This document shows positions 5,748 to 54,012 of a DNA stretch of 64,000 bases, in pieces. The notes under the pieces were generated by a model. It was not told the origin of the DNA. It did no database searches and was given only the letters and a program-made list of their open reading frames with translations. A program made the position numbers and the translations under genes. The stretch lies in NCBI GenBank assembly GCA_036517655.1, contig DATDVE010000023.1, positions 1,358 through 65,357 of the forward strand, written 5' to 3'. This DNA is from Minisyncoccota bacterium (GTDB taxonomy: Bacteria; Patescibacteriota; Minisyncoccia; Phycocordibacterales; DATDSR01). Each line of letters opens with the position of its first letter. The stretch's first letter is position 1.

Positions 5748-6215
5748 TTGTACGTGCCTATAAGCCGGATTCTGTCCTCCCTTGCGGGATGGATAATCAT
5801 TTGTCTTGATCCGATATTGCTATCGAGATTCTTTGCGAGCACTCTGCCAATCTTGCCCACCGCAGGTGGTTGCAATGATTGAGCACCCTTCCGTAGCCTT
5901 GGCGAAGGAGGGCGGGTAACCCTACTACGCTAAAGCTTCGCAGGGCTCTCAATTTTGCAGCTGCCAGCGGCAGGCAAAATTGGAGCACGACTCTTGCACA
6001 CAGGTAAGTATTTTGCCGTTTCATCCGAACTTAATCGGTTCGTCACTGTTCGCAACTCTTGGATTGCTCCAGATGGGCATTACCCACTACCTTCTCCCAC
6101 TTCGCACAAGGCTTCGCGGGACGTGTGTCCGGACTTTCCTCCCCACTTCGCACAAGGCTTCGCGGGGCGATTATCCGGCACGTACATGATCAATTATATC
6201 ATATCTAGGCTACAA
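5745..6215 (-). ncRNA. rnpB: RNase P RNA (bacterial type), approximate ends
   Basis: Minus strand carries the universally conserved P4 halves GGAGGAAAGUCCGGAC (revcomp of 6127-6142) and ACAGAAUCCGGCUUAUAG (revcomp of 5758-5775), about 365 nt apart, which is the right spacing and order for RNase P RNA. Confidence 0.7.
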
Positions 6216-23800: not shown

Positions 23801-23872
23801 GGCCCTATCGTCTAGCGGTTAGGACACCACCCTTTCACGGTGGGAACCCGGGTTCGATTCCCGGTAGGGTCG
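23801..23872 (+). tRNA. tRNA-Glu (anticodon TTC)
   Basis: Acceptor GGCCCTA/TAGGGTC, anticodon stem CCACC/GGTGG with loop CTTTCAC, T-arm CCGGG-TTCGATT-CCCGG. Confidence 0.8.
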
Positions 23873-23878
23873 TTGGTT

Positions 23879-24976
23879 ATGAATCTTAATTTTCAATTCA
23901 CGGCTCATGATGTTTGGCTCTCGCAGCTTGATGATTGCAGGGCCGCTACTTCCAGCATTGATCTTGAAAATTGGATTTTTGCAGACTCGGGGATTGGGCG
24001 GGAGTTCCTGGATGTTTTTTTAAAAAAGGCGAAAGAAGGGATACGGGTGCGTATATTACTTGATATGTATGGGAGTCTGTCAATGTACAAGAATGCTAGT
24101 TTACTTTTTGAATTTAGGAAGTCTGGGATTGAAATTGAATTTTTTAACCCCATTGCTTTCTGGCGATTATACAAATTATTTAGTTGGTTCTCGCGCCGCG
24201 ATCACCGCAAGCTTATTCTGGTAGACGGACGGATTGCTCACATTGGCAGCGCTTGCATAGACGAGAAGATGCGCTCCTGGCAAGAAGCTTCTGTGCGTGT
24301 TCTGGCAAGTGAACCTAGTGAACTTGTGCCTATCGCGGACGCATTTAATTACCTGTGGCACTCGGTTAAACGCAAGACACTTTCGCGCAAGGCGTTCGAC
24401 GTGCCACTTACGCCACGATTAAACTACATCTCAAGCACGCCGCATATTGGCAAGCGCATGATTCACCAAGCGCTAACACGCGCAATACGCAAAGCGCGCG
24501 AAAGTGTGCATCTAGTTACGCCCTATTTTGTACCCACAGAACGTTTGCAGTTTGCGCTCTTCCGGGCGCTCAAGAGAGGGGTAAAAGTCACACTGCTAAT
24601 TCCCGAGAATTCTGATCCCAGAATAGTGAATCTCGCCGCGTATGAATACGCGCGTTCACTTGTGCGCCGCGGAGCGCAAGTTTTGCTCTATCCCACCATG
24701 ATGCATTCTAAATACGCCATCATAGACGGGAAGATAGATAGCGATGGCAGTAGTGGGTGGGGGATGTTGGGCAGTGCGAATCTGGATAACTTGAGTTTAC
24801 TAAGTGATTATGAGCATGTAGTGTCCGGCACTGACCAAGATCTAATTGGGCCACTAATAAACAACTTCAATCTTTTAGCAAAGAATTCCAAACCATTCGG
24901 CGATAAGCAGATGCACCCACCTATCCACGACAAATTACTAGGCCTCCTGGCCCGCCCCATTCACCGGTTCTTATAA
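23879..24976 (+). CDS. phospholipase D family protein (cardiolipin synthase-like, two HKD motifs)
   Basis: HRKLILVDGRIAHIGSACID and HSKYAIIDGK...GSANLD (two HxKx4D motifs); start taken at the ATG at 23879 just after tRNA-Glu. Confidence 0.7.
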   Translation: MNLNFQFTAHDVWLSQLDDCRAATSSIDLENWIFADSGIGREFLDVFLKKAKEGIRVRILLDMYGSLSMYKNASLLFEFRKSGIEIEFFNPIAFWRLYKLFSWFSRRDHRKLILVDGRIAHIGSACIDEKMRSWQEASVRVLASEPSELVPIADAFNYLWHSVKRKTLSRKAFDVPLTPRLNYISSTPHIGKRMIHQALTRAIRKARESVHLVTPYFVPTERLQFALFRALKRGVKVTLLIPENSDPRIVNLAAYEYARSLVRRGAQVLLYPTMMHSKYAIIDGKIDSDGSSGWGMLGSANLDNLSLLSDYEHVVSGTDQDLIGPLINNFNLLAKNSKPFGDKQMHPPIHDKLLGLLARPIHRFL

Positions 24977-24979
24977 TTT

Positions 24980-25055
24980 TGGTGGGCGCGCCCAGACTTG
25001 AACTGGGAACCCTCGTCACGTCAAGACGATGCTCTACCAATTGAGCTACGCGCCC
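24980..25055 (-). tRNA. tRNA-Val (anticodon GAC), CCA encoded
   Basis: Revcomp GGGCGCGTAGCTCAATTGGTAGAGC...TTGACGT...GGTTCCCAGTTCAAGTCTGGG...CCA. Confidence 0.9.
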
Positions 25056-25122
25056 AAGCAATGCGCTTATGCTAGCAAAAAATAGTTGCTTGTGCTAGTT
25101 TGACCAAAGCACGGATCTCTTA

Positions 25123-25494
25123 GTGCAAGAGCGGGAGGACGCGATGGCAGGAGGAGGGTGTGGAGAAGCGGGTGGATTGCCCGCTTCTATCACGCGACCG
25201 ACAGGAATGAAGGATGCGCACTGGTTGAACATCGTGACGCTGGCCGCGGACCCGAAGGTATTCGAAGGCTTATTGCTTGACGTCAAGAAGCTCCGGGAGC
25301 AGGCTGACCGCGTGGCTGAACTCGAAGTGGCTTGCGCCAAGGACCACATCGCCAAGTCGGGGATCGAGGGACTGGCACGCGAGTGGGAGACGAGGTCGAT
25401 GGAGGCGCATGGGAGTATCCACGAACACTTGAAGGCCACTGGACGGGCCTTTGCTACCGCCGCGCGTGAGCTTCGTGCGCTCATCGGCAAATGA
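25123..25494 (+). CDS. hypothetical protein (high-GC; paralogous to the fragment at 27866..28074)
   Basis: 123 aa; C-terminal 45 aa (IEGLAREWETRS...AARELRALIGK) align with the translation of 27940-28074 (IEALIREWGTRC...AVRELREIIGE). Confidence 0.4.
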   Translation: MQEREDAMAGGGCGEAGGLPASITRPTGMKDAHWLNIVTLAADPKVFEGLLLDVKKLREQADRVAELEVACAKDHIAKSGIEGLAREWETRSMEAHGSIHEHLKATGRAFATAARELRALIGK

Positions 25495-25585
25495 GCGCGA
25501 TCGCTGGACACAGCAGCCGGGGACCCAAGAGGGTACCCGGCTGCGATTCGTTTACAATTTACTTTATCCACACACTCGACTTGCT

Positions 25586-25607
25586 ATGGTGTACGATCGT
25601 ACACCAT
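25586..25607. promoter_or_regulatory. perfect 22-bp palindrome ATGGTGTACGATCGTACACCAT, candidate LexA operator (SOS box)
   Basis: Perfect dyad 12 nt upstream of the lexA-like start; GTAC-N4-GTAC core resembles non-E. coli LexA boxes. Confidence 0.5.
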
Positions 25608-25618
25608 AATTCTTATAT

Positions 25619-26209
25619 ATGGCGATGAAGGAAGGAAAGAGGAGTTTGGGGGAGGTGGTGGGGAAACTGCGCGGCTTTTATCTTGCTCACAGACGTTTGC
25701 CTAGTTATTCTGAATTTGCCAAGGAAATTGGTGTGCGCTCTAAAAACGCGGTGCTCAAGTGGATGCATAAGTTAGAAGATGCGGGGTTCGTTAAGCAAGA
25801 CTCTCGCGGCAGAATATCTCTGGGCGAGAACTTCGCTGGTGTGCCACTTTTGGGTGTGATTGAAGCGGGTTTCCCCACGGGTGCGGAAGAAGAGGTGCTC
25901 GGTACACTTAGTCTTGACTCATACTTGATCAAAAACCGCGAGGCAACTTATGTGCTCACAGTGAAGGGCGACTCGATGATAGACGCTGGTATCCGCGAGG
26001 GCGACATGGTTATTGTTGAGCGCGGAGTAGAGGCAAAAAGTGACGATATTGTGATTGCAGAAATAGACGGCGCGTTTACGATGAAATACTACCGGAAACG
26101 CGGCAGAGAAGTGTCGTTAGAGGCAGCGAATAAGAAGTATAAAACTATCTTCCCAAAAAATGATTTAAAAATTACTGCCGTAGTACGAGCAGTTATCAGA
26201 AAATATTAG
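25619..26209 (+). CDS. lexA: LexA-like transcriptional repressor (winged HTH + S24 peptidase)
   Basis: 196 aa; N-terminal DNA-binding region, C-terminal S24 fold with Ser in VKGDSM and downstream Lys (MKYYRKRG). Confidence 0.75.
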   Translation: MAMKEGKRSLGEVVGKLRGFYLAHRRLPSYSEFAKEIGVRSKNAVLKWMHKLEDAGFVKQDSRGRISLGENFAGVPLLGVIEAGFPTGAEEEVLGTLSLDSYLIKNREATYVLTVKGDSMIDAGIREGDMVIVERGVEAKSDDIVIAEIDGAFTMKYYRKRGREVSLEAANKKYKTIFPKNDLKITAVVRAVIRKY

Positions 26210-26304
26210 AGATAATGACGAAATGAGCAATTTGCAATTTGCAAACAATTTTGGAATGGCAGAATGTTTAAAACGAATTAAATCATTATTTCATTGTTTA
26301 CACA

Positions 26305-27549
26305 TTGCAAATTAAACCATTGAATCATTTAGTTCTTCATGTAGACGGCGATGCGTTCTTCGTGGGTTGCGAGCTTACGCGCCGGCCGGACTTGCGGGGC
26401 TTGCCTGTTGTTACCGGCGCGGAGCGGGGGATTGCCTCGGCCATGAGTTATGAGGCAAAAAGACTGGGTGTAACTCGCGGCTACCCAATATTTAAGTTAC
26501 GCAAAGACTTTCCTCAAGTTATTGTGCTGCCAGGCGATTATGAATTATATGAGCAGATGGCTATGCGCATGTACTCAATAATGAGCAGGTTTAGCGACAA
26601 AGTCGAAGAGTACAGCATAGATGAATGCTTCGCCCTGCTTCGTCAAGACTACGCAGGGCAAGCTCGTGAAATTAAAAATACTTTGCAGCGCGAGCTGGGT
26701 ATGACATTCTCTTTCGGCCTTGCGCCTACTAAAGTTCTGGCCAAACTGGCGAGCAAGCGCGATAAGCCAGACGGTTTAGTTTGTGTGTCGCGAGAAAATA
26801 TTGAGCGAGAGTTATATGGCATGAGTATAGAGAAAGTGTGGGGCATTGGCCCGCGCAGTCTGCCGCTATTACATGCTCTGGGTGTGCACACTGTAGGTGA
26901 CTTTGCTGCGCAAAACGAGCAGTGGGTGCGCACACATTGGAATGTGAACTTTCTAGATTTATGGCACGAGATTAGGGGCGAGCAAGTTTACAAAGTAGGG
27001 GAAGGTGATCTTGCTAAACATAAGTCAATTCAAAAGACGCGCACATTCTCGCCCTCTACCAACGATCCCGCAGTGCTTATGGGCCAATTAGCTAAAAATA
27101 TAGAAAACGCATTCGGTTATGCGAGGTCACTTAATCTTGCCGCGAGCGGGGCAAGCGTGTTCATTAAAACAGATAAATTCGGCTACCGGGTAGCCGAATT
27201 TAAGTTCTCTTCACTTACTCAAACCCCGGAACTACTGCTTGCAAAAGTTCGCGAGCGATTACCCAAATTAATCAAAAAGAGCGAGAAATACAGAGCCACA
27301 GGCGTCACTTTGTTGAATTTACTGGAGGTGAGTCCTCCACTTGGAGGTCTCACCTCCAAACCAGATCTCTTCGGCGACTTCGCAAAAAAAGAGAGTCAGT
27401 TAGCTGTGCACCAAGTTGCTGATAAATTATATGAGAAATATGGTGGCAGAGTGCTAACCGTGGGAAGCGCGCTAGCCTCGAGGCACCTAGGCAAAGTGCA
27501 ATCCGCAAGATCAAACCTAGGCCTTCCGTATCTAGGCATTGTGTGCTAG
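26305..27549 (+). CDS. Y-family DNA polymerase (DinB/Pol IV or UmuC-like)
   Basis: 414 aa; catalytic start LHVDGDAFFVGCE, SIDECF acidic motif, little-finger region; directly downstream of lexA. Confidence 0.8.
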   Translation: MQIKPLNHLVLHVDGDAFFVGCELTRRPDLRGLPVVTGAERGIASAMSYEAKRLGVTRGYPIFKLRKDFPQVIVLPGDYELYEQMAMRMYSIMSRFSDKVEEYSIDECFALLRQDYAGQAREIKNTLQRELGMTFSFGLAPTKVLAKLASKRDKPDGLVCVSRENIERELYGMSIEKVWGIGPRSLPLLHALGVHTVGDFAAQNEQWVRTHWNVNFLDLWHEIRGEQVYKVGEGDLAKHKSIQKTRTFSPSTNDPAVLMGQLAKNIENAFGYARSLNLAASGASVFIKTDKFGYRVAEFKFSSLTQTPELLLAKVRERLPKLIKKSEKYRATGVTLLNLLEVSPPLGGLTSKPDLFGDFAKKESQLAVHQVADKLYEKYGGRVLTVGSALASRHLGKVQSARSNLGLPYLGIVC

Positions 27550-27575
27550 TTTGAAACCGGAAGGAGGTCTCAAGA

Positions 27576-27863
27576 ATGCGTATTCTAGAGAACCTTGCGG
27601 GGCTAGCAGCGCTCGTTACGATCATCGCAGCCTTCATGCGGCTGTGGTCTCTTGTAGTCGCCAGTGCCACTACCATGGTGGCTCTCGAAGTCCTCGACAT
27701 CGCCTTGAGCAGCCACTGGGCATGTTCGAAATGGCCCAAACTCCGGCGCTATCAATTGCCGCAACCGCCAGATGACGAAGCGGGAGTAGCAGTTGTCGGT
27801 CTCGGTCCGCGACCTACAAAGAGGGTTGGAGCAGAAGCCGCAATAAAACCAGAAGACGATTAA
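27576..27863 (+). CDS. hypothetical small membrane protein (high-GC)
   Basis: 95 aa; two hydrophobic helices; strong RBS GGAGGT upstream. Confidence 0.3.
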   Translation: MRILENLAGLAALVTIIAAFMRLWSLVVASATTMVALEVLDIALSSHWACSKWPKLRRYQLPQPPDDEAGVAVVGLGPRPTKRVGAEAAIKPEDD

Positions 27864-27865
27864 CT

Positions 27866-28074
27866 CAAACGCGGCCAGTGAGGCCAAGGAGCTACTCGAT
27901 CGGACCGATGTCGGCAGGGGTTTTGTGTCCACAGAGAAGATTGAGGCACTGATAAGGGAATGGGGGACTCGCTGCAAGGAGACCTTGGACGGAGTGGTGC
28001 ATGATCGCCTCAAGGGTATGGGAGCCGGGTTCGGCATCGCGGTGCGGGAGCTTCGAGAAATCATCGGCGAGTGA
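27866..28074 (+). pseudogene. start-less fragment paralogous to the C-terminus of the 25123..25494 product
   Basis: Open frame 27847-28074 translates to ...ELLDRTDVGRGFVSTEKIEALIREWGTRCKETLDGVVHDRLKGMGAGFGIAVRELREIIGE* with no ATG/GTG/TTG start; clear similarity to 25123..25494. Confidence 0.35.
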
Positions 28075-28134
28075 ATACGTACAATAACGGTCGGAACTCC
28101 AAGTGGAGGACCGACCGCCTTTCTTTTAAGAGAG

Positions 28135-29343
28135 TTACTTCTTTCTTCGCAGAAATGCGGGCATGGCCCAAGAATCGTCTTCTTCCTCTTCCTTCTTTTC
28201 TTCTTTCTTTTCTGTTTTGCCGGCGCGGCTCTGGACCATGCCCATGTCAGAATTTGGAGTCTGGATGCTAGAGACTGGAGTCTGGATGCTAGAGACTGGA
28301 CGCTGGACGCTGGAACTTCTAGCTTCCGATTTACTAGCTTCTATATCTCCAGAGCTGAAGAGGCCCTTCTTCTTGGGTGCTGCTTGTGCACCCCCGAAGC
28401 CCGAAGCTATAACAGTAATCTTGACTGTGCCCTTCTTGAGTCTGTCGTCGTAGAAGGCGCCGAATATGACTCTTGCCTCCGGATCAGCAGACTCGGTGAT
28501 CACTTGCGCCGCTTCTTGGATCTCCATCATTGACAAGTCCTCGCCTCCTGCGATTGCAAAGAGCAGTCCTCGAGCTCCCTCGATCGAGACATCGAGCAAA
28601 GGCGAATTGATAGCGGCGCGCGCCGCGTCCGTGGCCCGATTCTCGCCAGAGCCAATGCCGATACCCATGAGAGCAGAACCAGCATCCTCGAGTACAGCTC
28701 TGATGTCGGCAAAGTCTACGTTGACCAATCCCTTCGAAGTAATTAAATCAGAGATTCCTTCAACTGCTTGCAGCAGTATTTCATCGCAGAGAGCAAAAGC
28801 GGCCGAGACTGTTGTGTTCTTGTCGATAATTTGGAGCAGGCGATCATTAGGAATAACTATAATCGCATCCACTTCACGTGAGAGTTCTTCGAGGCCTTGG
28901 TCTGCAATGCGACTGCGTTGCGCTCCTTCGAATGCAAATGGTTTGGTCACAACGCCGATGGTCAGAATGCCTTGCTCGCGCGCCGCGCGGGCCACAACTG
29001 CAGAAGCACCTGTGCCCGTGCCTCCGCCCATGCCACAGGCGACGAAGACCATGTCCGCGCCCTTGATCACGCCCTGCACGTCCTCGAGTGTTTCTTCTGC
29101 AGCCTTGCGACCTAATTCTGGATTCATGCCCGTGCCCAAACCCCTAGTCAGATTTTTGCCGATGTGTATTTTTTTAGGAGCAAGTGAGTGATGCAAGTCT
29201 TGAGCGTCAGTGTTAATGGCAATAAATTCCACTCCCTTGACTTTGGAGCGAACCATGTGGTTTACCGCATTAGTGCCTGAACCACCCACTCCAATTACCT
29301 TGATGCGCGCGAAGGCCTCAATTTCTGGACTAACTTTTGCCAT
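28135..29343 (-). CDS. ftsZ: cell division protein FtsZ
   Basis: GGGTGTG tubulin signature, NTDAQ, 402 aa; C-terminal linker encoded by a 21-bp tandem DNA repeat. Confidence 0.95.
   Translation of the reverse strand: MAKVSPEIEAFARIKVIGVGGSGTNAVNHMVRSKVKGVEFIAINTDAQDLHHSLAPKKIHIGKNLTRGLGTGMNPELGRKAAEETLEDVQGVIKGADMVFVACGMGGGTGTGASAVVARAAREQGILTIGVVTKPFAFEGAQRSRIADQGLEELSREVDAIIVIPNDRLLQIIDKNTTVSAAFALCDEILLQAVEGISDLITSKGLVNVDFADIRAVLEDAGSALMGIGIGSGENRATDAARAAINSPLLDVSIEGARGLLFAIAGGEDLSMMEIQEAAQVITESADPEARVIFGAFYDDRLKKGTVKITVIASGFGGAQAAPKKKGLFSSGDIEASKSEARSSSVQRPVSSIQTPVSSIQTPNSDMGMVQSRAGKTEKKEEKKEEEEDDSWAMPAFLRRKK
28256..28312. repeat. tandem 21-bp repeat (GGAGTCTGGATGCTAGAGACT x2 plus degenerate copies) inside the ftsZ 3' region
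   Basis: Two exact adjacent copies, then GGACGCTGGACGCTGG; encodes the repeated SSIQTPV peptide in the FtsZ C-terminal linker. Confidence 0.8.
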
Positions 29344-34736: not shown

Positions 34737-34765
34737 AGAACTTAGGACCCGGAGTCCTAAGTTCT
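34737..34765. repeat. REP-like hairpin AGAACTTAGGAC-CCGGA-GTCCTAAGTTCT at the 3' end of the RAYT gene
   Basis: 12-bp inverted repeat overlapping the stop codon of the 34765..35412 CDS. Confidence 0.8.
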
Positions 34766-35412
34766 TACTCTTCATTAAATAATTCTTGAAGTTCTTTGTA
34801 CGATGCCCTTTTTTCGATCATGAATGGAAGATTGTCTAAGCAAAAATTTTCAAACTCTCTATTTTTCGTGAATTGTTCGAGCAAAATATCCTTCTTACAC
34901 AACCCTCGTGCATTTTGCGTATATTCATTCCAACTTGAACGGACAAGCTTGTTACTCTCTTCATTAAGTTGGTGAACACGGTTGTTCAGATTTACATATG
35001 CAGCTGAATGGAGAAAGTAATCGTTATCAGAAATGTGTTTTGACTTGAATCTCCCTGGGAAAAGAGTCCCAGAACGTTTGTGCCGATTATTGAAATATTT
35101 AACGTATCCACCTATTTGTTTGTTCATGAACAAACTGATGCCGCCCTCAACTATTTCCTCTAAAATAAAGTGGAAGTGGTTAGGGTTAAGGCAATAACAA
35201 ATAATGTTAACTAATGGAGAGACATCGTCCCTTTTATTGCCCGCAAAAGAGTTCGAGTAAATGCTCTCGATAGGTTCTATCGTATTGAATTCTGCCAATC
35301 CTTGCACGAACCTGTCAGAGTCTTTACTATCAATTACAATATTCCGTTTATCTACACCACGATTATAAATGTGATAGAACTCTCCAACAGCAAAAGCTTC
35401 TTTCCTAACCAT
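34765..35412 (-). mobile_element. HUH-Y1 transposase gene, REP-associated tyrosine transposase (RAYT)/IS200-like, copy 1
   Basis: 215 aa; HUH motif NPNHFHFIL and catalytic Tyr region SAAYVNLN; flanked on both sides by CTTAGGAC-N5-GTCCTAAG hairpins; paralog at 39208..39855. Confidence 0.75.
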
Positions 35413-35424
35413 ATTCGTATTATA

Positions 35425-35447
35425 ACTTAGGACTCCGGGTCCTAAGT
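35425..35447. repeat. REP-like hairpin ACTTAGGAC-TCCGG-GTCCTAAGT upstream of RAYT copy 1
   Basis: 9-bp inverted repeat 13 nt upstream of the RAYT start. Confidence 0.8.
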
Positions 35448-35532
35448 AAGGAGTTGTGGATAAAAGAAAGGCCGGGACGCTCTCGCACTCCCAGCCTTGA
35501 CTTTCGCTTTCCCCGGCCGTGATGTGGCCGCT

Positions 35533-43253: not shown

Positions 43254-43526
43254 GTGAACGAGTACTTAGCCGCAGTTCCCGCGGCAGTGGGCAAGATCAA
43301 GACAGAGATCGTCAACCCTATACTGAAGCTCTTGATTGCGCTTGCTGTAATATACTTCCTCTTCGGGGTGGTTAAGTACTTTATTGGTGCGCGCGAGAGG
43401 GCTGATTCGCAAGGCGCGGCCGAAGGCAAGAATCACATGCTCTGGGGTATCATAGGTGTAGCTATTACTATCTCGGCCTTCGGCATAGTTAATCTGATCG
43501 CAAGTTTCGTCGGGGAGGTAAGTTAA
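43254..43526 (+). CDS. two-TM pilin-like protein, paralog 5
   Basis: 90 aa; GARERADSQGAAEGKNHMLWGIIGVAITISAFGIV. Confidence 0.55.
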   Translation: MNEYLAAVPAAVGKIKTEIVNPILKLLIALAVIYFLFGVVKYFIGARERADSQGAAEGKNHMLWGIIGVAITISAFGIVNLIASFVGEVS

Positions 43527-43699
43527 CCCTGTTTCGCCCCACTTCGCTAAAGCTTCGCGGGGTCATTTTGCCAGCAAAATGAAAAACAGCCTTCGCGCCG
43601 TTCCCCTCCCAGCTTATGGCGGGGAAGTGACGGAGCGAAGGCCGTGACTTGAGACAAATGGTCCAGGAGAACGTGAGCGGGGGCGTGCTCGTGGCCGGG

Positions 43700-44713
43700 T
43701 CATGGGTAGAGCCGCATCTGGCCGTGACTGGGGCTCTCCGAGACCCAACAAGGGGTACCCTCGCAGATGCCGTCGTGACAGCAGTTCTCGTCCCAGCGCA
43801 TTGTGATAGCTTCACCCCTGTCTCGTGTCCCGTCGCGGTTCACGATCCAGCCCGTTCCCTTGCCGGCACCCTCCTTCCAAACCACGTGGCCGGTGTCGCC
43901 TTCCACGGTGGTGAGAGTGTAATGTTGCCAGCCTGGGCTATCCGCGACCTTGGTGAGGTCGAAGCGCCCATCCTGGTTCTCGAGGAACTGCGCGACGATA
44001 TGTCTCGTCGGCTTCGGGAGTTCGAACCCGAGCGCTGTTGGTGGAGCCGGTAGCGGCTGCTCGTCGGGGATGTGCGGAAGAACGTTTGCCCATCGCGCCA
44101 GTCGCCGGCCTTCCTTCTCCTCATTCACGGCCTGTGCCTGCTTGACGAGGTCGCGAACGGCTTGATGCCGAGTCGCCGTATCCTTGCCGCGGGCGACAGT
44201 CTCGACTCCGCGGACGACCTTCTTTCCCGTCTCGTGCACAGTGTCCGCGCTCGGCCAGGCCACCATCCTCGCCAGGTTCGCGAGTGCGACGACCGCTATG
44301 ATGAGGCCGGCGTACTGACGCAGCTTCCCCGGAGGAAAGACAACGCCGAGACCGATGTAGGCGACGAACAGAACGCCGCAGAGCAGGAAGCCGTAGCGGT
44401 TCTGCTCCGTCTTGAAGACGAGCACGAAGGTGCCGTAGGTGACCCCCAAGAAATAGGGGAACCACAGCAAGCGAACGAGCATCGCCACCGCCCGAATGTA
44501 GGGGATCTGCGAGGCGAGGGCGACGCCGGTGAAGAAGAGGGCCACGATCGTCGGGGAGATGAACACCACGACGAGCGGAAGAAAGATGTAGACGAGCGTC
44601 AGGACGAGTGCGGGTGTGTCCCAGCCCCACAACCCGCAGGCCGTGATGGCCGCGAGCATGGCGCCGAAGCCGATGATCGTCCACTGTCCGATTGAATCGA
44701 GATACGTTCTCAT
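43700..44713 (-). CDS. hypothetical polytopic membrane protein with Cys-rich C-terminal domain (high-GC island)
   Basis: 337 aa; about 6 TM helices then a soluble domain ending in ...CCHDGICEGTPCWVSE; GC content far above flanks. Confidence 0.45.
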   Translation of the reverse strand: MRTYLDSIGQWTIIGFGAMLAAITACGLWGWDTPALVLTLVYIFLPLVVVFISPTIVALFFTGVALASQIPYIRAVAMLVRLLWFPYFLGVTYGTFVLVFKTEQNRYGFLLCGVLFVAYIGLGVVFPPGKLRQYAGLIIAVVALANLARMVAWPSADTVHETGKKVVRGVETVARGKDTATRHQAVRDLVKQAQAVNEEKEGRRLARWANVLPHIPDEQPLPAPPTALGFELPKPTRHIVAQFLENQDGRFDLTKVADSPGWQHYTLTTVEGDTGHVVWKEGAGKGTGWIVNRDGTRDRGEAITMRWDENCCHDGICEGTPCWVSESPSHGQMRLYP

Positions 44714-45121
44714 TTAGTACCTCCTTCTCCTGATGGGTGGTAGGGGTGGGACTGGCTGGCCGACCGGTCGTGACCGGAAGTACGGCAGCTTGTTGACCAG
44801 CCCCATGAACAACCTGACAGGGCTGATCCGTCGGCCGATCTCGGCCATCTCGCGATCGAAATCCGCGATGGGCTCGGCGACCTTGTCGAAGATCTCGCGA
44901 CCCTGCGCCTTGGCCGTGTCCCAGTCTGGGACACTCTCCCCAACGATGGCCACGAAGCCGTCGTCAGAGCGGCGATCGAGCGCTCTCTTGAGCGCCTCCG
45001 GATCAGAACAGATCCGATCCCAACGCTCCGCCCAGACTTTGAAGCGCTTCAGGAACTTCTCCTGATACGCACCCTCGTCGGTCTTGGCGATCTGGGTGAG
45101 ACTCTTGTCTTTCGTTGGCAT
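44714..45121 (-). CDS. hypothetical protein (high-GC island), start trimmed to the internal ATG
   Basis: 136 aa from MPTKDKSL; charged, helical; the longer ORF overlaps the upstream gene. Confidence 0.35.
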   Translation of the reverse strand: MPTKDKSLTQIAKTDEGAYQEKFLKRFKVWAERWDRICSDPEALKRALDRRSDDGFVAIVGESVPDWDTAKAQGREIFDKVAEPIADFDREMAEIGRRISPVRLFMGLVNKLPYFRSRPVGQPVPPLPPIRRRRY

Positions 45122-45134
45122 GTCTCTCCTCCTT

Positions 45135-45473
45135 CTAGAGAATTCCGTCGCGAAGTGCTTCCCGGGCGTCCTCTCCCGGCTTCTTGGGCTTGTCACCCGC
45201 CTTGCCGAAGAGGTGAACGTACGCATCGGCGTAGATGATACGCTGAATGCGTTCGCGCTGGAAGCGGTTCGGATGGTCGAGCGCGGCGCAAAGGGCGGGG
45301 TAATCCCGCTGTCCGTCCTCGCTCTCGATGAGCGGGGAGACCAGACTGCGGACCGCGTCCGCGTCTTCCTTCTGTTGCTCTCTGCCCTTCTTGTCTCCCA
45401 AGAAGAGCTTTTCGATCACGTACCAGATCCCCTCGTCGAATGGGATCAAGTCTAGCAGCTTGGGCATCTTCAC
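45135..45473 (-). CDS. hypothetical protein (high-GC island)
   Basis: 112 aa; the three island genes are co-oriented with short spacers. Confidence 0.35.
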   Translation of the reverse strand: MKMPKLLDLIPFDEGIWYVIEKLFLGDKKGREQQKEDADAVRSLVSPLIESEDGQRDYPALCAALDHPNRFQRERIQRIIYADAYVHLFGKAGDKPKKPGEDAREALRDGIL

Positions 45474-53658: not shown

Positions 53659-54012
53659 AGGGGGGGGGGTAGAATCAAGTCGGTTCGAACCATGGTTCGG
53701 TGAGGAATGAAGCGTGTAGACTTTCCGTATTCGCGCAGGGACGGGCGTTACCTTGGAGAAGGTGCGTTAAACCACATACTCGCCACGACGGGTTATGCCG
53801 GGAGTTACCAGACAACTGGCCTCTCGCCTGGGAAACAACGTGGGCCAAGCCCCCTGCTACCTTACGTAGAAACTGTACCCGCTTCTCACCCTGCTCGGGC
53901 TGGATACCCGAGGCAGGTTACCAAGCCGAACTGCTTTACGCCGGGTGGACGCAAGTCCACCCGGCTTTCCCGTTGTCTGTAAGTAATATACCTGCGTAAC
54001 GGGGGTGACTCT

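Follow-up and report, generated by a model that had tools for sequence, protein, structure and literature searches.

A probable vertically inherited SOS operon of Paceibacterota, with a lineage-variant LexA box and fast-diverging orphan genes at its flanks

In Escherichia coli, the umuDC operon, which LexA controls, places the gene of an S24 protein directly before that of a Y-family polymerase, and in dinB-yafNOP small passenger genes follow the polymerase gene in the same operon. The LexA box of cyanobacteria is reportedly RGTAC-N3-DGTWCB. Closer to the genome considered here, an SOS network in the phylum Patescibacteria, with autoregulated lexA and translesion polymerases as core targets, has been described, as far as the papers that cite this work relate (Sanchez-Osuna, Barbe and Erill 2017, Environ Microbiol 19:3465, cited in PMC7739468 and PMC8565304), and the LexA (DinR) of Firmicutes and Actinobacteria is associated with a GAAC-N4-GTTC box (PMC4951493), variations of which occur in Cyanobacteria and Chloroflexi (PMC4951493). 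A second LexA of Gallionellales type with a GAAC-N4-GTTC motif is also reported, by way of citation, from betaproteobacteria (Sanchez-Alberola et al. 2015, cited in PMC4951493). Here we describe a lexA gene and a Y-family DNA polymerase gene that lie between tRNA-Val and ftsZ in a 64,000-nt stretch of contig DATDVE010000023.1 from a Minisyncoccota bacterium, the whole of which we call the window. We consider it very probable that the region is a chromosomal, vertically inherited core SOS operon of Paceibacterota (Patescibacteria, or Candidate Phyla Radiation) and not a mobile one, and that the open reading frames (ORFs) at its flanks are hypervariable orphans. An earlier, sequence-only reading of this DNA had presented the pair as a mobile or recently acquired SOS-mutagenesis cassette and thought an SOS system notable in a reduced genome; LexA-controlled translesion polymerases, those of reduced Patescibacteria genomes included, had already been described, at least as the 2017 study is cited in PMC7739468 and PMC8565304, and the finding in that first form matters little.

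The features named in that reading are all present, each no more than about one base from the position given, and its central pair of genes is borne out by domains and active-site residues. The repressor gene (25619..26209, plus strand) encodes a protein of 196 residues with a winged helix-turn-helix (HTH) and an S24 peptidase domain, the latter recognised by Pfam (Peptidase_S24, E 3.6e-27). The protein passes the NCBIfam LexA equivalog model TIGR00498 with 120.5 bits against a cut-off of 110.95, over residues 27-195, and in an alignment to E. coli LexA structures (residues 24-178) it keeps both the cleavage site and the Ser-Lys dyad: Ala83-Gly84 (IEAGFP), Ser119 (GDSM) and Lys156 (TMKYY) pair with A84-G85, S119 and K156 of the E. 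coli protein. None of the Pfam HTH models reaches its own cut-off in LexA, and the winged-HTH DNA-binding domain is recognised from the TIGR00498 score and from the alignment to E. coli LexA, which begins at residue 24. The closest named sequences among 5306 LexA homologs are LexA proteins of Paceibacterota and Patescibacteria, and thousands of Patescibacteria sequences stand in the match list; an NCBI entry, 'transcriptional repressor LexA [Candidatus Paceibacterota bacterium]', is 100% identical to the protein of the window, and the best match in the genome-contig collection has 61% identity. The nearest LexA proteins outside Patescibacteria are mostly betaproteobacterial, from metagenome-assembled genomes of Gallionellales, Nitrosomonadales and Burkholderiales (loci L038-L080), with 34-41% identity; the motif class reported for the second betaproteobacterial LexA, as cited, is the same as that found here, whereas lineage and gene context differ.

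Exactly 95 nt beyond lexA, as the sequence-only reading had it, follows an intact gene for a Y-family translesion DNA polymerase of DinB/UmuC-like type (26305..27549, plus strand), which starts with TTG and encodes 414 residues with IMS, IMS_C and IMS_HHH domains (Pfam IMS 2.6e-35, 121.9 bits; IMS_C 5.4e-9, 36.9 bits). The catalytic residues D14 and D16 (VDGDAFF), D106 and E107 (SIDE) are in place, and both the Y-family core and the little finger are present. The order of an S24 protein gene followed by a polymerase gene is that of umuDC in E. coli, with the difference that the S24 protein of the window has a DNA-binding domain and is itself a repressor; small ORFs downstream of the polymerase gene recall dinB-yafNOP, although the orphans found here have no detectable relation to yafNOP. 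Some close relatives have their polymerase gene broken into two frames (L081 6622-7817, L082 810-2035, L087 2105-3327), of 296 and 105 residues in two independent assemblies, a pattern that suggests decay of the polymerase in those lineages while the copy in the window is intact.

Upstream of lexA lies a perfect 22-bp palindrome, ATGGTGTACGATCGTACACCAT (25586..25607), with a 16-bp core, GTGTAC-GATC-GTACAC, at 25589-25604; the palindrome itself had been seen before and placed 12 nt from the gene, but its end is 11 nt from the lexA ATG at 25619. It fills the spacer of a sigma-70-like promoter, TTGCTA-N18-CATAAT (25581..25610, plus strand), which is the single promoter-like match within 24900-28400. 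The ATG stands only 8 nt past the -10 hexamer, and the lexA mRNA is therefore probably leaderless or nearly so. For comparison we fetched 80 genomic and 80 metagenomic lexA loci, together with the contigs of the closest homologs, and built a position-specific scoring matrix (PSSM) from 20 other Patescibacteria lexA operators, the site of the window being excluded. The window operator scores 21.2 bits, where the training sites score 14.3-22.2, the next site in the window 11.1 and the maximum of 50 shuffles 19.0. A common architecture runs through 32 Patescibacteria lexA promoters: a TTGACA-like -35 hexamer, 1-2 nt, a 16-bp dyad with the consensus NNG[A/T]AC-N4-GT[A/T]CNN, and a TATAMT -10 hexamer that begins at the end of the dyad, with the ATG mostly 6-7 nt after the -10 hexamer and in a few cases farther. 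The lexA mRNAs of this shared architecture are likewise probably leaderless. Its place in the -35/-10 spacer, its conservation in orthologous promoters and its PSSM score identify the palindrome, on computational grounds, as the LexA operator through which lexA is autoregulated, in agreement with the earlier description of the dyad as a strong SOS-box candidate.

The same comparison assigns the operator to a known class. Among the four closest lineages, the orthologous operators read GTGTAC-GATT-GTACAC (L081/82), GTGAAC-GGTT-GTTCAC (L083-85), CTGGAC-GATC-GTACAG (L086) and CTGGAC-GAAC-GTACAG (L087); GTAC arms recur in an Adlerbacteria locus, in a locus labelled Marinamargulisbacteria and in Peribacteria loci, and hybrid GTAC/GTTC operators are found in L114 (GTGTAC..GTTCAC), L035 and L036. 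Because the L083 ortholog has GAAC/GTTC arms and hybrid sites exist, A or T appears to be tolerated at this arm position. GTAC-GATC-GTAC has the 4-nt spacing of the GAAC-N4-GTTC box, as do 31 other Patescibacteria lexA promoters, whereas its arms are GTAC/GTAC and not the canonical GAAC/GTTC. Judged by spacing, by GNAC/GTNC arms and by orthologs that alternate between GTAC and GAAC, the operator is a GAAC-N4-GTTC box in lineage-variant form, A being replaced by T once per arm, and no new motif, contrary to the suggestion that it stands apart from the Gram-positive box. With the Firmicutes and Actinobacteria system (PMC4951493) it shares the 4-nt-spaced inverted repeat, the G-N-A-C arms, an operator laid over the lexA core promoter and the Ser/Lys/Ala-Gly chemistry of autocleavage; it differs from that system in having T and not A as the second arm base, in its longer arms (GGTGTAC), in being a single box and in the Y-family polymerase downstream. 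The cyanobacterial box, compared as a box and not through its protein, is alike in the GTAC half-site and in tolerating A or T at the corresponding position, and belongs to a different phylum. As to the Patescibacteria network, as it is represented in later citations, phylum, lexA autoregulation and translesion polymerases as core targets are shared; in our own survey of 41 + 26 loci, lexA promoters carry boxes of GAAC-N4-GTTC type and a Y-family polymerase follows directly after lexA or within ~2 kb, and the locus in the window differs in that its GTAC arms are extended to a perfect 22-bp palindrome. The alternation of GAAC and GTAC in orthologous promoters of close relatives is a clean case of operator drift and well suited to studies of the evolution of LexA specificity. 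We also compared the recognition helix (SKNAV-LK, -SQ, -IA) with GTAC and GAAC arms: among close relatives the co-variation is suggestive, and we make no claim of it, as L036 and L037 combine almost the same helix with different arm types. Patescibacteria lexA loci that lack a GAAC/GTAC box (L004, L005, L007, L010, L014, L015, L021, L027) mostly also lack a downstream polymerase, and several of these loci show tandem direct repeats (CATTTC five times in L005, TCTAATC in L007) or other palindromes. Such repeats fit the divergent or direct-repeat LexA motifs that PMC7739468 attributes to Patescibacteria.

The setting of the two genes is shared with their relatives. To the left stand a PLD-like gene (23840..24976) and tRNA-Val(GAC) (24980..25055, minus strand; ARAGORN, with an Rfam tRNA score of 66 bits), and to the right ftsZ (28135..29343, minus strand; 76-88% identical in relatives), with ftsA beyond. 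In four related lineages (L081/82, L083-85, L086 and L087), whose LexA proteins are 70-77% identical to that of the window, lexA and the polymerase gene fill the same slot, and in all four the pair is adjoined downstream by ftsZ, ftsA and hisS. The tRNA-Val gene lies directly upstream of lexA in L081/L082, L086 and L087, and the PLD-like gene is detected upstream in L081, L083 and probably L087, and not in L086, on contigs that do not all extend to that side. Between tRNA-Val and lexA there is no ORF in L081/L082, and between polymerase and ftsZ none in L082. Throughout L081-L087 and L091-L098 the pair occupies the same site, only the small flanking ORFs vary, and no empty site is found. GC content is 0.475 in lexA and 0.482 in the polymerase gene, against a window mean of 0.488; the two genes thus have the genome's own GC, and the flanks are the atypical, variable part. 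On a wider scale, 26 of 41 Patescibacteria loci have a Y-family polymerase gene directly behind lexA or no more than ~2 kb downstream of it, a distribution from which we take the linkage to be ancestral and phylum-wide. The tRNA-Val gene lies on the plus strand in L081 (~5880-5960) and L082 (~1-90) and on the minus strand in the window, L086 and L087, which indicates a local inversion or rearrangement at a tRNA-Val hotspot.

From these features we infer a course of regulation that extends to LexA binding, RecA dependence and co-transcription. The sigma-70-type promoter would drive lexA and the polymerase gene, and most likely both small orphan ORFs, with transcription ending at a hairpin shared with ftsZ (28089..28119), which lies between the convergent operon and ftsZ, is followed by GCCTTTCTTTT, is conserved downstream of ftsZ in L081-L084 and L090, and likely serves as a bidirectional terminator. 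A LexA dimer on the box, within a -35/-10 spacer of about 17-18 nt, would shut out RNA polymerase. After DNA damage, filaments of RecA on single-stranded DNA would trigger self-cleavage of LexA at Ala83-Gly84 through the Ser119/Lys156 dyad, and the derepressed operon would then yield translesion polymerase and fresh LexA, and probably the products of the small downstream ORFs.

Several points weigh against this account of a resident SOS operon. A second credible LexA box was found nowhere in the 64 kb, whether by TGTACGATCGTACA with <=3 mismatches, by GTAC-N4-GTAC, by GWAC-N4-GTWC or by two PSSMs; the 14-nt core (<=3 mismatches) and GTAC-N4-GTAC occur once each, so the search for further dyads proposed earlier yielded no regulon beyond lexA autoregulation in the window. 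The gene recA is absent from the window, the palindrome also fits a terminator-like pattern, and the polymerase, which aligns full-length to NCBIfam Pol IV models, stays below their cut-offs (best 183.7 bits against 399, PRK01810) as it does below that of the UmuC model PRK03609 (145.9 bits against 431), for which reason we call it Y-family only and leave its subfamily unassigned. The spacer between lexA and polymerase (26210..26304, plus strand; 95 nt, AT-rich with GC 0.27), where relatives have unrelated spacers of 28-33 nt with GTTTGAG-like repeats, could hide an unrecognised promoter or attenuator: it contains TTGCAA repeats and a 21-nt imperfect inverted repeat (26229-26249 / 26293-26313), the right arm of which lies over the TTG start of the polymerase gene, and its predicted fold is not significant (z-score -1.69). 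Co-transcription of the orphan ORFs, which we regard as most likely, is read from the absence of predicted signals. That the palindrome acts chiefly as an RNA or DNA hairpin, for example as the terminator of an upstream ORF, would account for a 10-bp stem and 4-nt loop followed by ATTCTTATAT, yet the upstream ORF has a hairpin of its own at 25513-25544, the same dyad sits in the -35/-10 spacer of L081, where there is no upstream ORF, and across the 32 promoters the GNAC/GTNC arms are conserved and the spacer is free to vary, as in a protein site and not as in a stem; with a PSSM score inside the range of the training sites as well, we hold this explanation to be very unlikely. A better chance, still a small one, belongs to the view that the S24 protein is mainly a UmuD-like partner or local repressor for the adjacent polymerase, in a Pol V-like arrangement as with UmuDAb, and not a global SOS repressor. 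Its C-terminal domain passes a UmuD subfamily model by a narrow measure (110.4 bits against a cut-off of 110) and aligns to UmuD and UmuD' structures, a homolog (P0069) is named 'polymerase subunit' by its source, the linkage to a Y-family polymerase is tight across the phylum, and there is one operator only in the 64 kb. On the other hand, the protein passes the LexA equivalog and has a LexA-type winged HTH that aligns to E. coli LexA from residue 24, 15 of 41 lexA loci have no polymerase within the stretch examined, and published work treats these proteins as Patescibacteria LexA, as far as its citations in PMC7739468 and PMC8565304 tell; the roles of dedicated partner and repressor are, moreover, not mutually exclusive.

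The proposal of a mobile or recently acquired SOS-mutagenesis cassette next to tRNA-Val, bounded by paralogous ORFs in direct repeat, now appears scarcely credible. Its premises largely stand: the pair adjoins a tRNA gene, the ORF pieces on either side are genuine paralogs in direct orientation, the GC content of the flanks is atypical, and a 12-nt exact repeat, TGTGCTAGTTTG, occurs at 25091 and 27542. The four related lineages nevertheless all have the pair in the same slot, the GC content of lexA and the polymerase gene is native, and their linkage spans the phylum; Pfam, NCBIfam and PHROGs show no domain of an integrase, transposase or recombinase in the ORFs of 23840-28074. The 12-mer is the stop-codon context of the polymerase gene itself, and the flanking paralogs have ~60% identity at DNA level, so that their duplication is old and the alignment by which it was to be dated speaks against a recent event. 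The comparison of synteny from tRNA-Val to ftsZ in related genomes shows lexA and the polymerase as residents and not as an insertion, L081/L082 being without flanking ORFs. The palindrome is unique in the window and relatives carry the two genes in place without flanking paralogs, a combination that the sequence-only reading had itself named as counting against the cassette.

With the two genes read as a resident SOS operon, the GC-rich ORFs of the flanks are a variable component of the locus, not the termini of a mobile element. The left flank opens with a leader (25085..25143, plus strand) that begins with a vestige of the last codons and the stop of the polymerase gene, TGTGCTAGTTTG at 25091-25102. 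It leads into an orphan ORF, ORF-A (25144..25494, plus strand; GC 0.61), which has 116 codons from the ATG at 25144 or 123 from a GTG at 25123; we favour the ATG because of the family comparison and the GGGAGG Shine-Dalgarno sequence before it. AlphaFold, run on the single sequence, gives three helices in a generic helical bundle (predicted local distance difference test, pLDDT, 69.6), and ORF-A is accordingly a predicted three-helix, all-helical protein. A GC-rich inverted repeat after it (25513..25544, plus strand; 14-nt arms, 93% complementary) is likely a terminator or insulator ahead of the lexA promoter; analogous hairpins lie 3' of orphan ORFs in L087 and L090. On the right, 26 nt past the polymerase stop and behind a GGAGG Shine-Dalgarno sequence, an ORF of 95 codons (27576..27863, plus strand) encodes a predicted membrane protein with one or two transmembrane helices (Kyte-Doolittle 19-residue peak 2.2). 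Between the polymerase gene and this ORF neither a promoter nor a terminator is predicted, and it is probably the third gene of the lexA operon. Overlapping its end, a frame open from 27847 (27847..28074, plus strand) holds a paralog of the C-terminal module of ORF-A. The open frame is as first described, but it is not start-less: gene callers place a 49-aa ORF (P0122) in it, from GTG 27925. The similarity of the two flank pieces survives alignment statistics (BLASTP, 44% identity over 50 aa, E 8e-12 for the pair; tblastn across the six frames of the window, E 2e-8), and their high GC is confirmed: 27576-28074 has 0.57 beside the 0.61 of ORF-A, and only 3% of 372-nt windows reach at least 0.60. 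Rfam finds nothing besides the tRNA across 24900-28200. On the minus strand, ORFs at 25095-25571 and 27603-28064 were rejected as coding; they are low-complexity, Ser/Arg/Pro-rich antisense frames of the GC-rich ORFs, and we take the plus strand as coding in the flanks because gene callers and family similarity support it.

Among 5.8 billion proteins, ORF-A and the 95-aa ORF have no match but their own copies; gene callers nonetheless report both, on up to 16 contigs that derive from independent samples of what is essentially one strain. A full HMMER search with the alignment of ORF-A and the fragment adds two further distant relatives only, P0124 and P0125, on short clade-like contigs. A 982-aa repeat protein (P0123, E 1.8e-16 to the orphan profile) was set aside, its score being the sum over ten copies of a short repeat. 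All-against-all BLAST joins seven sequences (ORF-A, the fragment, L087_123, L086_134, L089_204, L090_110 and L090_109) through differing modules: an N-terminal GLPxSITRPxGMxDxEW, a VAELEAxCA helix, GKG[WF]VS...EL and a C-terminal ELRxLIGE. The links are weak similarities but significant, and by these shared modules the flank ORFs form a modular, very fast-diverging orphan family confined to this clade. In relatives its members occupy three gaps, from tRNA-Val to lexA, from polymerase to ftsZ and from ftsA to ybeY, with a content that is different in each lineage. Around the operon, such gaps illustrate the duplication, exchange and loss of orphan genes within an otherwise rigid, streamlined genome.

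The junctions of these gaps retain traces of how the upstream copy may have arisen. In the window, TGTGCTAGTTTG occurs only at 25091 and at the polymerase stop, 27542, and the leader of ORF-A aligns to the post-polymerase leaders of L090 and to the same junction in L087. L090 has an ORF-A-like gene right after its polymerase, and a second polymerase 3' end of ~50 nt with leader precedes the paralogous ORF. The repeat at the left junction and the duplication in L090 make it the simplest history that the post-polymerase segment was duplicated, or else the entire operon, one of the two lexA-polymerase copies being lost afterwards. An orphan copy would in this way have come to lie upstream of lexA before the window and L087 lineages separated, and that copy retains 12-14 nt of the polymerase 3' end. 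Window and L087 have near-identical junctions, ...GCTAGCAAAAAATAGTTGYYTGTGCTAGTTTG on the left and TTTATCCACA on the right, with ~450 nt of unrelated sequence between them, and conserved junctions around unrelated ORF bodies indicate cassette-like replacement or extreme divergence. A deletion of lexA and polymerase in L090 was considered and rejected: that contig begins within the 3' end of the polymerase gene, and what resembles a second 'remnant' arose by local duplication. The strain variant L097, 99.8% identical elsewhere, has three of its nine differences within the 49-aa ORF (equivalent to 28042-28069 of the window); all three are nonsynonymous, and one of them ends the frame one codon early. 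Such a pattern hints that selection on the 49-aa ORF is relaxed or diversifying, in population variants that are nearly clonal and too few for a selection test.

A further element of the lexA promoter may be new. A perfect match to the DnaA-box consensus, TTATCCACA (25564..25572, plus strand), lies 8 nt upstream of the -35 hexamer, and 16 of the 32 Patescibacteria lexA promoters (the window, L006, L013, L016, L018, L019, L025, L028-L030, L086, L087, L104, L106, L114 and L117) carry a DnaA-box-like element (<=1 mismatch) on that strand, 12-40 nt ahead of their LexA boxes. Its offsets from the LexA box cluster at -17, -25 and -35; the opposite strand yields none, and the control windows yield 0-1. 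As the sequence around it is not conserved, the element is under selection. A 9-mer consensus match at a conserved position is thus present, at which DnaA may bind; dnaA itself is absent from the 64 kb, and our literature search found no paper that ties a DnaA box to a lexA promoter. The placement of this element upstream of the -35 hexamer in lexA promoters is possibly the new observation here, and its fixed positions in half of the LexA-box promoters suggest a second, replication-linked input to the SOS core. We therefore put forward, tentatively and with considerable doubt, a two-input lexA promoter responding to LexA and to DnaA at the predicted TTATCCACA and, as a separate matter, a role for the 3'-end orphan ORFs as SOS-induced effectors. 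Were this so, the DnaA input would tie translesion synthesis, and the level of LexA, to the state of replication, the 95-aa membrane protein may be the main effector candidate, for instance as a division inhibitor or small toxin, and an effector role could account for the fast turnover of orphan ORFs beside ftsZ.

DnaA-box-like sites (<=1 mismatch) number 23 in the window, against 11.2 +/- 3.5 expected. One of them, CTATCCACA with one mismatch (1480-1488), lies 39 nt upstream of the ATG (1528) of a class II ribonucleotide reductase; in E. coli, ribonucleotide reductase genes are classical targets of DnaA. Other GWAC-N4-GTWC matches in the window were rejected as LexA operators, as they sit in tRNA-Glu, in a superoxide dismutase gene and in an unannotated intergenic stretch. 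An intergenic stretch of 350 nt at 53660-54012 opens with a run of ten G and appears GC-rich and structured; its dyads, GAAC-N4-GTTC-like and GTGGAC-N4-GTCCAC, score poorly as LexA boxes, and Rfam gives no family for it, with an L20-leader match below threshold at 25 bits. The largest GC-rich island of the window, at 43500-45230 (GC 0.60-0.66 over 1.7 kb), holds two minus-strand ORFs of 337 and 170 aa without a Pfam match, which may be further orphan or foreign genes. GC-rich hairpins of the GGTGAGTCCTCC..GGAGGTCTCACC type occur at 27323-27358, in the 3' coding part of the polymerase gene, and at 28089-28119, the terminator by ftsZ, with counterparts in L090 at 1272-1312 and 1746-1775, and may be REP-like repeated palindromes. 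Two inverted copies of CTTAGGACCCGGAGTCCTAAG, a 21-nt sequence with a palindrome, surround a 215-aa ORF (34741-34761 and 35426-35446) that has a weak, sub-threshold match to an IS200-like Y1 transposase, and 34741-35463 may be an element of IS200/IS605 type or a RAYT-like one. A perfect TTATCCACA, at 35455-35463, abuts the element that the CTTAGGACCCGGAGTCCTAAG copies flank.

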